DNA of 64,000 nt from Bacilli bacterium (GCA_045628045.1 JAZQOV010000011.1:4912-68911); one strand, 5' to 3'; numbered from the stretch's first letter, positions 11,827 to 19,214 are shown. The notes: generated from the sequence alone by a model not told the origin. A program made the numbers and translations.

Positions 11827-12711
11827 TTAATTTAATATTGATATATATTTATTCAATCTTTCCAATAAATATTTAGATATAAGTTTTTTCATTGGCTCAA
11901 GATTGTGCTTTAAATGAAATGCATCAAAAGCATCATAATAAGCACGTCTGTCGCTATATTTAATATCAATAGGTGGGAATCCTTGTTTCATTAATTCTAG
12001 ATTTAATAAGAGCCTTCCAGTTCTTCCGTTTCCATCAATAAAAGGGTGAATTGCTTCAAATTCAATATGGAATCTTGCTAATTTTGTAACAATATCTTCA
12101 TTAGATGTATTGTAGTTACAAATTAATTCATTCATTTTTGGTTCAATAGCATACGGTTGAACAGGTGTATGCTTTGAGCCCATTATTCTGACAGGGACCC
12201 TTCTGTAAACCCCTTTGTCTTGAGGTTGATCAGATAAAACCAAGGCATGTATTTGTTTAATTATACTTTCACCAATTTCAGTGTTTTCTTTCACTAAGTC
12301 GCATATAAAATCAAACGCTTCTTTGTGGCCAACAACTTCGAGATGATCTTTTAATGGTTTTTTGTCAATGGTAAGACCTCTTAGAACCATATCCGTTTCT
12401 CTTAGTGTTAATGTATTACCTTCGATGGCGTTGCTGTTATATGTGAACTCTACAACGAATTCCTCATTTAATCTTTTAATTTCGCCAGGCGTTAATGGCC
12501 TTTTAGAATCTAATATATTTTTAAGTTCTAAAATTTTGGATAAATAGTTTTCGTTGTTTTTGATTCTGCCATCAATTGGTTTTACGGCATCATCTGGTAT
12601 AAACCACGTTTTTCCATACAATTCTGCTCCATCAATTTTGCCTTCTGCACAAAGAATGCGAATCCTTCTGTCAGATATATTCCATTTTAGACTAGCTTCT
12701 TTAGTATTCAT
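11827..12711 (-). CDS. fic: Fic-family AMPylation (adenylyltransferase) protein, class II (N-terminal inhibitory helix)
   Basis: Canonical Fic motif HPFIDGNGRTGR. Inhibitory motif SNAIEGN ([ST]xxxE[GN]). The N-terminal 45 aa look like a small DNA-binding domain. RBS GGAGG 9 nt upstream of ATG. Confidence 0.85.
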   Translation of the reverse strand: MNTKEASLKWNISDRRIRILCAEGKIDGAELYGKTWFIPDDAVKPIDGRIKNNENYLSKILELKNILDSKRPLTPGEIKRLNEEFVVEFTYNSNAIEGNTLTLRETDMVLRGLTIDKKPLKDHLEVVGHKEAFDFICDLVKENTEIGESIIKQIHALVLSDQPQDKGVYRRVPVRIMGSKHTPVQPYAIEPKMNELICNYNTSNEDIVTKLARFHIEFEAIHPFIDGNGRTGRLLLNLELMKQGFPPIDIKYSDRRAYYDAFDAFHLKHNLEPMKKLISKYLLERLNKYISILN

Positions 12712-12730
12712 TATCGATTGCCTCCGACTT

Positions 12731-12790
12731 TATCGGAATAATAATAACACATATCGGAATAATAATAAAGCAATATCGGAATAATATTAA
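12731..12790. repeat. Three direct repeats TATCGGAATAATAAT(A) with 21-22-nt period, immediately upstream of the minus-strand fic start
   Basis: Copies at 12731-12747, 12752-12768 and 12774-12790 seen directly. They lie in the -10..-70 region relative to the fic ATG. Confidence 0.7.
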
Positions 12791-12982
12791 AAATGTGTTT
12801 TTGTTTCACGATTATAACGATTTGGGATACGTACCTAATTTGTTACACCAAAAGTGTAACCGCGTGTATCGGTGACTAGTAGTAACACGTGATTACAAGT
12901 GACATGTTTGTTAACATCGAGGTAGGGTTGCAAAAATGTATGTAACACGGTAATAAAATGGTAATGGTTTTCCTATTGTTTT

Positions 12983-13009
12983 TGACAAAAATTTAGTTTC
13001 AGTATAATA
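12983..13009 (+). promoter_or_regulatory. Consensus sigma70-type promoter (TTGACA-15 nt-TATAAT) driving the DUF285 surface-protein gene
   Basis: TTGACA at 12983-12988 and TATAAT at 13004-13009. Confidence 0.55.
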
Positions 13010-13167
13010 CAGTTATATGACAGCCACGTATAGGCAAAACACTAATCATACGTCTTGTTACGGTACATGTGGAGACTGTCGTTTCGTTAATTTTTAAGCA
13101 AAAATAGCAAATTGTTGTTGCTCCCTGCAATTTGACTTTTATATATTGTTTCTTTACAATTCATATT

Positions 13168-17438: not shown

Positions 17439-17468
17439 TTGAATTTTTTCATCAAAATTAGTTATAAT
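17439..17468 (+). promoter_or_regulatory. Promoter copy 3 (TTGAAT-18 nt-TATAAT), driving a structured leader and the 85-aa ORF
   Basis: TTGAAT 17439-17444 and TATAAT 17463-17468. Sequence identity to copies 1 and 2 stops 10 nt after the -10. Confidence 0.6.
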
Positions 17469-17474
17469 ATTTTT

Positions 17475-17625
17475 ACCATAAAGAGTACGGCGAGGGACAA
17501 GCCCTATGACCCGTCAGCAACCTGCGTATAGCAAGGTGCTAAAGCTTGACTGATGGTTGTTTTTATTTTATAAGCCGTCAGTATCGATGGCTTTTAATTT
17601 CTTTGTGGTAGATAAGGAGGCTTAT
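17475..17625 (+). promoter_or_regulatory. About 150-nt structured 5' leader (attenuator/riboswitch-like) ending in an intrinsic terminator just before the RBS
   Basis: Nested stem ACGG-cg-AGGG-acaag-CCCU-auga-CCGU. CAACC...GGUUG + UUUUUAUUUU. Terminator hairpin GCCGUC-aguauc-GAUGGC + UUUU (17569-17596). RBS AAGGAGG at 17614-17620. Confidence 0.35.
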
Positions 17626-17880
17626 ATGCCACAGAAAACATTACAAAACGATCTTTACGTAGTCGTTATCTCTTCTAAAGAAGAAAGAGATGAACTTAAA
17701 GCATTATGCGTAAAACATAACATTCCTCTTCTTTATCCAGAGTTATTTAAGGAAGAGGAGATTCATCACTTATGGGGAATCTCTAAAAACGGTGTTGCTT
17801 TAGTGGGCACAATGATTGCAAGACATACACCTAAAGAGAATATATTTCATTCTGTTAAAGAACTGGAATGTATTCTCTAA
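17626..17880 (+). CDS. Hypothetical 85-aa protein (MPQKTLQNDLYVVVISSKEERDEL...)
   Basis: ATG 17626 with a perfect RBS AAGGAGG 6 nt upstream. The track's longer ORF from 17557 would span the leader terminator, so it is rejected. Confidence 0.55.
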   Translation: MPQKTLQNDLYVVVISSKEERDELKALCVKHNIPLLYPELFKEEEIHHLWGISKNGVALVGTMIARHTPKENIFHSVKELECIL

Positions 17881-18155
17881 TATCTTTTCTTGATAGAGAA
17901 GCGTAAGCAAGTTCTCGTATAACAAGAAAAGTGCGCTAAATTTCAATCCTTAAATGTCTATTAAATTAGCATCACGGTTAACACTTGCTCGTATTTACTA
18001 GGGGAAGCGGTAGTTATCTTTTCTTAAATTGCGCTATTTCCTGCCAATAAACAAGACTGGTTGTATTGGCTTTTTGTGTACTAAGAAAAGCAAATTTCGA
18101 TATTGAAATACTGCATATTTTTTAGTAAAATATATTCAGTAAAAGAAAGGTTAAT

Positions 18156-19214
18156 ATGCACAAATTCAGTTATGATTTTATAAAAAATCAAATTTTAACC
18201 TCAAATCTTTTTTCGCTTTCAAGCATTATTATAGATCTTAAAGAAAAAGCATCTAGCAAAAAACAAAACAAAGAAAAACTTTTTAAAAAGCTTGAGACTA
18301 TTGCAATTAAAGATTCTGTCGAAGCATCAAATGCAATTGAAGGAATCTACACAACTGGGGATCGTATTGAAGAAATTGTTGATAATGGCTCCACACCTCT
18401 TACGCATGACGAAGAAGAAATTGCAGGTTATAGGGACGCAATTATTTTTGTTAAAGAAAACTATCAATATTTAAGTTTTGATGAGACCACAATCAAAAAA
18501 CTTCATTCAATGTTATTTTCAAGGCATACCGGTTCACATAAGGGCGGTGAATATAAAAAAGAAGATAATATTATTGCGGAAAGAAACAAGAACGGAACAA
18601 TAAAAAAAGTTATTTTTAAAACAGTGCCTGCTAAGGATGTTGAAAAGCAAATGAAAGAGTTTGTTTTGGCTCATCAAGTAGCGAGAGACGATTACTCAAT
18701 TCCTGGCTTGTTATTAATCCCGTGTGTTATTGTTGATTTTCTCGCCATTCACCCTTTTCAAGATGGCAATGGTAGATTATCTCGTTTATTAATGCTTTTG
18801 CTTTTATTCAAGGAAGGCATTGATATTGGTAAATATATATCACTTGAAAAAATGATCAATGAATACAAGTTTAATTATTATGAATCACTTCAATCTTCTC
18901 AACTAGGTTGGCATGAGAACAAATCTAATTATCAGCCATTCATTGTGTTTACGTTTCAAATCATATATGAATGTTACAAAAAGATTAATGAACGTTTCCT
19001 CATTATGACTAGCAATAAGATGAGTAAGAAAGAAATCATTGAAGAAACAATTAAACAAAGTTTAGTGCCAGTTTCAAAAGAGGAAATTCATTCTTTATTT
19101 CCAGATATTTCTATTACTACTATTGAAGCTCAATTGTCTAATTTACAAAAGTTAAACAAGATAACTAAAATAGGAACATTTAAGAACGCTAAATATTTAT
19201 ATAACAAAAAATAA
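18156..19214 (+). CDS. fic: Fic-family AMPylation protein, class II, with C-terminal winged-helix-like extension
   Basis: Fic motif HPFQDGNGRLSR. Inhibitory motif SNAIEGI. Promoter TTGAAA-17-TAAAAT upstream at 18101-18129. Confidence 0.85.
   Translation: MHKFSYDFIKNQILTSNLFSLSSIIIDLKEKASSKKQNKEKLFKKLETIAIKDSVEASNAIEGIYTTGDRIEEIVDNGSTPLTHDEEEIAGYRDAIIFVKENYQYLSFDETTIKKLHSMLFSRHTGSHKGGEYKKEDNIIAERNKNGTIKKVIFKTVPAKDVEKQMKEFVLAHQVARDDYSIPGLLLIPCVIVDFLAIHPFQDGNGRLSRLLMLLLLFKEGIDIGKYISLEKMINEYKFNYYESLQSSQLGWHENKSNYQPFIVFTFQIIYECYKKINERFLIMTSNKMSKKEIIEETIKQSLVPVSKEEIHSLFPDISITTIEAQLSNLQKLNKITKIGTFKNAKYLYNKK

Follow-up and report, generated by a model that had tools for sequence, protein, structure and literature searches.

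Fic proteins predicted to bind DNA

Fic enzymes are potent toxins that need a leash, and inhibitory helices, separate antitoxins and autorepression are the leashes known so far. Here we consider two Fic genes, Fic1 and Fic2, that lie between positions 11,827 and 19,214 of a 64,000-nucleotide stretch of DNA (the window, from whose first letter all coordinates are counted) from Bacilli bacterium (GCA_045628045.1, JAZQOV010000011.1:4912-68911). A preliminary description of the window had taken the two genes to bracket a surface-protein/small-RNA island. In our judgement it is likely that they are instead two independent single-gene modules, each with a DNA-binding domain and an operator, that repress themselves and encode toxin-like or defence AMPylases.

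A combination of this kind is found in CccR of Yersinia pseudotuberculosis, which is both a class II Fic toxin and a transcription factor, and acts through a palindrome near the -35 and -10 boxes to repress its own promoter (PMC9755527). The helix-turn-helix (HTH) of CccR is C-terminal, the gap in its palindromic operator is 26 nucleotides, and the protein AMPylates FtsZ and is secreted by a type VI system (PMC9755527). As in CccR, an inhibitory-helix Fic and a (here predicted) DNA-binding domain are joined in one polypeptide in both Fic1 and Fic2, and Fic2 also resembles CccR in domain order and in its palindromic operator. The Fic2 palindrome differs, however, in having a gap of 13 nucleotides and another sequence, and no secretion system was found near either Fic gene. 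Fic1 departs from CccR in that its DNA-binding domain is N-terminal and of the excisionase/HTH_17 type, and in that its putative operator consists of three direct repeats.

SoFic of Shewanella oneidensis (PDB 3eqx, 3zcn) is an anti-phage defence toxin (PMC12249575). As a dimer it binds the 100 bp that precede its gene; it acts constitutively as a deAMPylase and AMPylates EF-Tu, and both FICD and SoFic are bifunctional AMPylase/deAMPylases (bioRxiv 10.64898/2026.07.09.737422). EcSofic is a toxic single-gene defence Fic accompanied by a small downstream antitoxin (bioRxiv 10.64898/2026.07.09.737422; PMC12249575). Fusions of HTH and Fic domains were noted by Kinch et al. 2009, who suggested autoregulation (PMC2686095). 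Autorepression of Fic enzymes is already known for CccR and has been suggested for SoFic, in both cases by way of a C-terminal HTH; an N-terminal excisionase-type Fic, a direct-repeat operator and a cassette-like spread were not encountered in the literature searched, most subscription journals lying outside its coverage.

The same logic is seen in Phd-Doc, VbhA-VbhT and FicA-FicT, where a toxin is checked by an inhibitory element and a DNA-binding part represses its own promoter. In Fic1, unlike these systems, a single chain combines the toxin with its inhibitor helix and a predicted DNA-binding domain, and there is no separate antitoxin gene.

Two class II Fic proteins

Fic1 (11827..12711, minus strand) and Fic2 (18156..19214, plus strand) are open reading frames (ORFs) of 294 and 352 amino acids, and hidden Markov model (HMM) searches identify the Pfam Fic domain (PF02661; gathering cutoff 24 bits) in both, at 78.8 bits (5.6e-22) in Fic1 and 56.1 bits (7.1e-15) in Fic2. 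The canonical HPFx[DE]GNGRxxR motif that the preliminary description credited to both proteins can be read intact in each, as HPFIDGNGRTGR at residues 222-233 of Fic1 (H222PFIDGNGRTGR233) and as HPFQDGNGRLSR at residues 199-210 of Fic2 (H199PFQDGNGRLSR210), and it is invariant in alignments of the Fic1 family as well as of the Fic2 family. The inhibitory motif S-x-x-x-E-G, likewise claimed for both, is present as SNAIEG in the same chain and N-terminal to the Fic core (S93NAIEG98 in Fic1, S58NAIEG63 in Fic2). In the scheme of Engel et al. 2012, class II Fic proteins are said to be those whose own chain carries [S/T]xxxE[G/N] ahead of the Fic core. Motif and motif position place both Fic1 and Fic2 in this class, and from the catalytic motif alone we infer that both are AMPylases.

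From its N-terminus, Fic1 is predicted to comprise an Xis/HTH_17 winged helix (residues 1-45), a flexible linker, the inhibitory motif and a FICD-like Fic core. Residues 58-294, which make up this core, align with FICD/HYPE, with Clostridium difficile Fic (CdFic; 4x2c) and with Bacteroides thetaiotaomicron Fic (BtFic; 3cuc) at E-values of 1e-22 to 2e-29, and all three are described as class II enzymes. The likeness takes in the catalytic loop and also the inhibitory motif, which is SNAIEGN in Fic1 and TVAIEGN in FICD. Residues 1-50 of Fic1 are extra relative to the FICD-like core; FICD/HYPE, CdFic and BtFic have no N-terminal HTH, and FICD has a transmembrane segment and TPR repeats. We know of no operator or autoregulation described for these three proteins.

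A DNA-binding-like segment at the N-terminus of Fic1 had been proposed in the preliminary description, and several kinds of prediction agree with it. The codons concerned occupy 12577..12711 on the minus strand. HTH_17 (PF12728) is matched by all 24 of 24 distinct N-terminal segments of close Fic1 homologues (E<0.01; best 1.7e-10), and a PHROG excisionase family matches as well (3.8e-8). In an AlphaFold2 model of the domain (predicted local distance difference test, pLDDT, 88.7) two helices (residues 3-10 and 14-23) are followed by two strands (30-32 and 35-37), an HTH with a beta-hairpin wing. The best PDB matches to this model in Foldseek are lambda Xis-DNA (1rh6, 2ief) and HK022 Xis, with template modelling (TM) scores of 0.65-0.69 and a root-mean-square deviation of ~2 A; RacA, Pukovnik Xis, RdfS and a MerR-family protein are further matches, all those listed having TM 0.5-0.69. 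A sequence search of PDB with the N-domain profile returned spurious fucose-lectin matches only. In a 28-sequence alignment the invariant positions of the domain include W10, I12, S13, D14, R15, R16, L20, C21, W36, P39, K44 and P45, and seven of them (I12, S13, D14, R15, R16, L20 and C21) fall in the predicted recognition helix, I12-S-D-R-R-I-R-x-L-C21. Sequence and model together indicate that residues 1-45 form an excisionase-type winged helix (HTH_17).

The Fic1 family is very large. All 8000 of the 8000 candidates scored had E<=1e-10, so the family has at least 8000 members, many of them ~70% identical over their full length. Residues 84-285 of Fic1 also match PADLOC PDC-S04 (4.6e-42), a candidate defence family whose own anti-phage function is putative.

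Three direct repeats upstream of Fic1

Three direct repeats, the putative Fic1 operator, occupy 12730..12791 and read in the direction of the gene (minus strand). Their consensus in the window is TATCGGAATAATA(A/T)TAA, which corresponds to TATTATTCCGATA on the gene strand, the plus-strand copies reading TATCGGAATAA. In a pattern search of the 64-kb window, the 17-mer pattern TATCGGAATAATAWTAA is matched solely at 12731, 12752 and 12774, giving start-to-start spacings of 21 and 22 nucleotides, and the 11-mer of the repeat has no other occurrence in the window. The three repeats of the preliminary description are thus present and unique in the window, the qualification being that repeats 1 and 2 read TATCGGAATAATAATAA and repeat 3 reads TATCGGAATAATATTAA, one base off.

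The same description had the repeats sitting over the Fic1 promoter, and this is approximately right. They overlap an extended -10-like sequence, TGtTATTAT (12741..12749, minus strand, between repeats 2 and 1), which is a possible alternative -10 box; however, they lie downstream of a perfect TATAAT (12811..12816, minus strand), a candidate -10 that is kept in the orthologous locus L003, and upstream of the ribosome-binding site at 12725-12721 on the minus strand. This shifted layout is shared by the window, L003 and L004, the three copies filling the space from TATAAT to the Shine-Dalgarno sequence, and repression could therefore be by occlusion or roadblock.

For comparison, Fic1 loci were assembled from 79 genome loci, 2 by exact look-up and 3 annotated records. 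Nearly every full-length Fic1 orthologue has TTCCGAT, or near variants of it, upstream on the same strand. The pattern [AGC]TTCCGnnA is matched 149 times in 7200 nucleotides of upstream sequence (60 loci) versus 412 times in the remaining 1.7 Mb of locus sequence, an 85-fold enrichment with the background counted on both strands. Two or more same-strand copies occur in 53 of the 60 loci and exactly three in 30, two to four copies being the usual range, and the spacing between successive sites is 19-23 nucleotides in 80 of 91 cases. The TTCCG core is invariant among the repeat sites, and positions that the pattern did not impose are also conserved (TATT before the core, A after it), such that the site approximates TATTrTTCCGaTAa; the spacers and positions outside it are near random. 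The promoter-proximal repeat of 30 of 64 loci lies inside the 16-18 nucleotide spacer that separates TTGnnn from TAnAnT, a classic position for a repressor and as expected for an operator. The same repeats are found in isolate-derived records, namely a Leptotrichia shahii plasmid, the Streptococcus prophage Javan422 and Mycoplasmopsis cynos. Across about 60 orthologous loci, the Fic1-type gene has the triple repeat with it as a conserved cis element. Both a predicted DNA-binding fold in the N-terminal segment and the persistence of the repeats at orthologous loci were looked for, and both were found.

Direct repeats at a spacing of ~21-22 nucleotides are also the hallmark of iteron arrays, and the triplet might be taken for plasmid-type replication iterons or for a chance AT-rich repeat. 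Such an origin has next to no probability. There is no rep gene in the cassette described below, and the repeats are always immediately 5' of the Fic gene, be it in chromosomes, a prophage or a plasmid; chance is countered by 100 shuffles of the 64-kb window, which produced 0 matches to the repeat pattern, and by the 85-fold enrichment across loci.

The single full-length orthologue that has no TTCCG repeat is that of locus L045 (a Faecalibacterium bin, upstream of 10001), and it carries R16Y (ISDRY for ISDRR) in the otherwise invariant recognition helix. When recognition-helix residues were compared with operator variants (GATA versus GCAA), no clean rule of co-variation was found, the sole signal being L045.

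The geometry of the repeats invites comparison with the excisionases. The Xis proteins of lambda and HK022 are HTH_17/MerR-superfamily excisionases with a small winged-helix fold like that predicted for the Fic1 N-domain, and Xis assembles as a head-to-tail cooperative filament on direct repeats, the geometry expected for three same-strand sites. Xis sites are adjacent, however, at about one helical turn, and serve recombination, whereas the Fic1 sites lie ~21-22 nucleotides apart within a promoter, and in Fic1 the domain is joined to an enzyme.

A mobile gene-plus-operator cassette

The Fic1 gene and its operator belong to a cassette of 1047 bp (11822..12868, minus strand) that was delimited by nucleotide comparison with L003. 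The cassette is 96.5% identical to L003 9843-10889, where the encoded protein is 98% identical and both flanks are unrelated. Similar limits emerged from an all-against-all comparison that took in 1.5 kb either side of the gene: in ~30 locus pairs with 85-97% nucleotide identity, homology ends ~95-160 nucleotides upstream and +3 to +44 downstream. Cassette pairs at 88-89% identity span bins labelled Bacteroides, Alistipes, Paludibacteraceae, Mollicutes and Bacilli, and the orthologues, in genomes and bins whose labels cover several phyla, come from sources that include human faecal, rumen, dog lung and bioreactor samples. A perfect palindrome, GTTACAC-N5-GTGTAAC (12842-12860), lies at the upstream edge of the cassette and is common to L003, with GTAACAC occurring again at ~12882 and ~12942.

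The 1047-bp cassette contains a single ORF and no separate adjacent antitoxin gene. Because homology ends just outside the gene and operator, no protein but Fic1 is constantly found with the repeats, and this constant company is our chief reason for taking Fic1 itself to bind them. It could be imagined that the repeats are bound by some other regulator, a host factor or one encoded elsewhere, since HTH_17 domains are common and a family member could recognise the site. We regard this as improbable, given that no other gene is shared among the unrelated genomes, the plasmid and the prophage in which the repeats accompany the Fic1-type gene. The absence of the 11-mer elsewhere in the window, the invariance of seven recognition-helix residues as well as of the TTCCG core, and the R16Y change in the repeat-less orthologue (a single case) also speak against another regulator.

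Only marginally better are the prospects of a reading that makes the repeats sites of recombination or of DNA architecture and gives the Xis-like domain the part of a directionality or DNA-bending factor in the movement of the cassette, with repression as a side effect. The excisionase-type domain, which in structure is matched best by Xis-DNA filaments on direct repeats, is what such a role would call for, and the cassette has sharp, recurrent limits near the outermost repeat, with identical hairpins flanking both sides of some copies (L031 and L046). No integrase or recombinase accompanies the cassette, however, its upstream limits range from -75 to -268 from pair to pair, and there are no target duplications or terminal repeats common to all copies. 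In addition, a repeat is placed inside the sigma-70 spacer in about half of the loci, as it would be for an operator, and the junction in the window resembles homologous recombination within a methyltransferase gene.

An integron- or att-type cassette was rejected, as no common terminal repeats and no recombinase were found at the compared loci. The hairpin of L031 and L046, CTGACACGGTGTCAG, stands upstream of the operator and again just past the stop codon, and could be a terminator-like insulator or a cassette end.

The settings in which orthologues are found fit an addiction or defence gene, as judged from the neighbouring sequences. For instance, one orthologue is flanked by RelBE and YoeB toxin-antitoxin pairs on a plasmid of 18 kb, another lies between terminase and portal in a prophage, and another beside a type I restriction-modification system. 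Activity induced by DNA binding has reportedly been seen in a Coxiella Fic. On a bolder reading, which we think rather unlikely, the HTH_17-Fic gene and its triple-repeat operator would be an autonomous selfish or defence cassette that spreads as a minimal unit of about 1 kb among phyla, plasmids and phages, and in which the Xis-like domain both represses and gates a switch from deAMPylase to toxic AMPylase through operator occupancy, copy number or foreign DNA, and might also aid its own mobilisation.

Fic2 and its palindrome

The closest solved relative of Fic2 is 8uqu (E 3e-51, full length), followed by 7xux, Coxiella 8cil, SoFic and FICD, and the Fic2 family profile matches 7xux at 1.3e-13. 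The structure 7xux is probably that of CccR. Residues 36-331 of Fic2 match the PADLOC SoFic model (4.5e-34). SoFic, itself a class II Fic, has a winged helix at its C-terminus and forms a dimer. Against the NCBIfam SoFic equivalog model Fic2 scores 44.5 bits, the cutoff being 550, and is thus a distant relative of SoFic rather than an orthologue or equivalog. Overall, these similarities identify Fic2 as a SoFic/CccR-like class II Fic. Its C-terminal domain of ~70 amino acids (residues 285-352, ending ...KIGTFKNAKYL) is presumed to be a winged helix, and is matched by the C-terminus of 8uqu (E 2e-5); an hhalign comparison of the Fic2 C-terminus with a neighbouring protein that has a Fic-like_C domain gave a probability of 0.4%.

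Alignment of upstream regions revealed a putative Fic2 promoter and operator at 18103..18141 on the plus strand, with a -35 box TTGAAA (18103-18108) and a -10 box TAAAAT (18126-18131). The -10 box is flanked by a palindrome, TACTGCATAT-N13-ATATTCAGTA (18109-18141), which the preliminary description had overlooked. In Fic2 orthologues the pattern is TACTGCATAT-N13-ATATGCAGTA (the right half is also written ATATkCAGTA), and it stands at an equal distance from the ATG in 10 of the 10 orthologues examined (47-83% identity). In the case of L082 the palindrome has changed symmetrically, to TTGCATA/TATGCAA, and in L003, with its two Fic2 paralogues, each has its own palindrome. The pattern occurs once in the window (18111-18139; 0 expected), and among 179 collected loci it is found only upstream of Fic2 orthologues. 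A metagenome scan for Fic2 gave mostly relatives of 30-35% identity, useless for operator analysis, and contig look-ups with the exact protein were used instead.

No conserved small AS1-like gene downstream of Fic2 was seen at the Fic2 orthologue loci. In the window, Fic2 is followed by an HTH_3 antitoxin-like gene that overlaps a YafQ/RelE-family toxin gene, and then by a DUF2779 protein (19725-20605, 20773-22908), and the region looks like an accessory toxin-antitoxin or defence neighbourhood.

A model for two self-repressing modules

The reading that we prefer is that of two self-repressing single-gene modules, in which each Fic probably represses its own gene. Fic1 would bind the three head-to-tail TATTATTCCGATA sites, which are spaced by about two helical turns in the promoter or leader of its gene, with Fic1 monomers lining up head-to-tail in the manner of Xis on one face of the DNA and repressing transcription. 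Self-repression would keep the level of Fic1 low, while the internal inhibitory glutamate, E97, would restrain AMPylation. In the case of Fic2, a dimer would occupy the palindrome on either side of the -10 box and likewise repress its own gene. The inhibitory glutamate would hold both enzymes inactive, and once released they would act as toxin-like or anti-phage AMPylases of the abortive-infection type, tight leashing of this kind being the most likely state of both. The ~1-kb module of Fic1 gene and operator would have spread by horizontal transfer among several phyla, into their chromosomes, plasmids and prophages, and would have entered this genome recently, through recombination at the 3' end of a methyltransferase gene.

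A number of observations weigh against this model. The HTH_17 and HTH_59 matches to the Fic1 sequence of the window alone are sub-threshold (E ~1e-3), its N-terminal domain scoring 19.5 bits (E 1.2e-3) against HTH_17 where the gathering threshold is 27. The Foldseek E-values for the N-domain, at 0.3-0.9, fall short of significance, which is explained by its length of only 52 residues, and in the AlphaFold2 model of full-length Fic1 (pLDDT 74.5) residues 89-127, the region of the inhibitory helix, fall below 50. In the case of Fic2, the C-terminal 78 amino acids gave sub-threshold winged-helix matches in Pfam, and no significant HTH similarity emerged from Pfam, a PDB profile search or hhalign. 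The repeats of the window itself are downstream of the best -10 candidate and outside the -35/-10 spacer. Many of the ~60 loci are mutually related, so that the independent lineages are fewer than 60, and several of the taxon labels are those of metagenome bins and are to be read with caution. Finally, a role in defence has HMM similarity and gene neighbourhood as its sole basis.

A patchwork of insertions between the Fic genes

The two Fic genes and those between them might also be read as one co-evolved island, for instance a surface-protein/small-RNA unit under the control of Fic, as the preliminary description had it. The genes are adjacent in the window, and Fic genes often cluster in relatives (L164/165, L166-168 and L003). 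Comparison with locus L176, which is 97% identical to window 5355-19236, makes such an island very improbable. In L176 the order is ABC/FtsX, methyltransferase, DUF285 protein, S-box ORF and Fic2, and two stretches of the window are missing: block 1 (11798..13065), which consists of the Fic1 cassette and 197 nucleotides, and block 2 (15587..17425), with the lipoprotein gene, the small transcripts and orf131. Thus L176 retains Fic2 and two of the intervening genes but has no Fic1, lipoprotein, small-RNA-like units or orf131. The same Fic1 cassette occupies a different setting in L003, and a second Fic gene near the Fic1 orthologues of L001 and L002 is unrelated to Fic2.

The anchor of the region is a tRNA/rRNA (uracil-5) methyltransferase gene (10456..11802, plus strand), the ancestral neighbour of Fic2. 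The Fic2 orthologue directly follows the methyltransferase gene in L162 (83% identity) and in L169-171 (60%), and lies beside it in L164/165. Because Fic2 adjoins the methyltransferase gene in these more distant relatives, Fic2 is the resident and all that stands between the two is a later addition. Fic2 is co-directional with the plus-strand genes upstream of it, and not convergent with them. Fic1 and Fic2 are not a pair, and they belong to different subfamilies, Fic1 being FICD/CdFic-like and Fic2 SoFic/CccR-like. Fic genes do tend to cluster, a Fic2-type gene often standing beside a second Fic of another subfamily (L164/L165, L166-L168, L003).

The left junction of block 1 falls within the final ~12 codons of the methyltransferase gene. 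The insert carried with it a diverged version of the methyltransferase 3' end, and the original 3' end survives as an orphan duplicate at 13066..13110 (plus strand), a scar of the recombination junction. This arrangement of an incoming diverged 3' end and an orphaned original one suggests homologous recombination with a donor that had Fic1 beside its methyltransferase gene. Block 2 brought the lipoprotein gene, two extra copies of a promoter module and orf131, L176 having one promoter copy. Gene order and identity thus portray the "island" between the Fic genes as a patchwork of recent insertions, and not as one system.

Genes and predicted small transcripts between the Fic genes

The first gene after Fic1, from which it is separated by a 420-nucleotide intergenic region, encodes the surface protein (13132..15582, plus strand) that had been assigned to DUF285, an assignment borne out by Pfam DUF285 (2.7e-26) and the NCBIfam PARCEL repeat (1.7e-30). 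The protein has hydrophobic N- and C-terminal segments and its likely start is ATG 13168. The gene is common to L176, and missing from L162 and L169. The lipoprotein gene (15608..16525, plus strand) begins MKNNFNKAALLLPIILTSC, in which a lipobox is recognisable by eye.

Downstream of the lipoprotein gene, a ~900-nucleotide stretch contains the cluster of repeated promoters noted in the preliminary description. A strong 57-nucleotide promoter module (TTGAAT-18-TATAAT) is present three times, at 16571, 16840 and 17422, with 0 expected by chance. Copies A and B are followed on the plus strand by predicted small transcripts A (16624-16705) and B (16893-16975), which are near-identical, ~80 nucleotides long, and made up of a 5' hairpin and an intrinsic terminator (minimum free energy -28.7 and -28.9 kcal/mol, z = -4.1). 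Both are missing from L176, and transcript B runs antisense to the 3'-terminal codons of orf131. When Rfam was searched with a permissive cutoff, neither transcripts A and B nor the intergenic region 12712-13131 could be assigned to a family, and only the S-box passed.

The orf131 gene (16917..17312, minus strand) has a good Shine-Dalgarno sequence and encodes a basic protein of 131 amino acids, with 13 matching cluster representatives among 1.8 billion and no family. Upstream of it (17313-17420) is a conserved leader of ~90 nucleotides on the minus strand that contains a GAAC-N3-GTTC palindrome. The same leader is found upstream of a 215-amino-acid gene at 51240-51887 (leader 51888-51991) and of a RhuM-family gene in L175 (5428-5525), and the shared sequence may be an operator or 5' untranslated region element. 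Near the former, a minus-strand ORF of 382 amino acids (49984-51132) resembles by eye an IS605 OrfB/TnpB-type protein, with a C-terminal CxxC...CxxC.

Promoter copy C, unlike its supposed role in the earlier "small-RNA" cluster, drives an S-box leader and an orphan ORF (17422..17880, plus strand). The S-box (SAM-I) riboswitch (RF00162, 17473-17559), which the preliminary description had also missed, matches the Rfam covariance model at full length with 51.8 bits (gathering threshold 44.4), and is followed by a predicted terminator at 17572-17593. The ORF (17626-17880) has a perfect Shine-Dalgarno sequence and encodes 84 amino acids with no Pfam match and 8 homologues among 5.8 billion proteins; its position behind the riboswitch marks it as an unusual putative member of the S-adenosylmethionine (SAM) regulon. 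A homologue in L175 lies in a different setting, rich in mobile elements. PHROGs and PADLOC returned nothing for the lipoprotein, orf131 or the 84-amino-acid ORF.

Significance

For the window, the story of an island is replaced by one of a series of insertions beside a conserved methyltransferase-Fic2 pair. The wider interest lies with Fic1, which represents a very large family, defined here from genome comparison alone, with a different, predicted leash: an N-terminal excisionase-type domain together with an operator of three TATTrTTCCGaTA sites at a spacing of ~21 nucleotides, which make up a testable protein-DNA pair. A gene and operator that move as a 1-kb unit across phyla would be behaving as expected of addiction or defence modules, and the Fic1 cassette may offer a clean system in which to study the control and the targets of FICD-like bacterial Fic enzymes.

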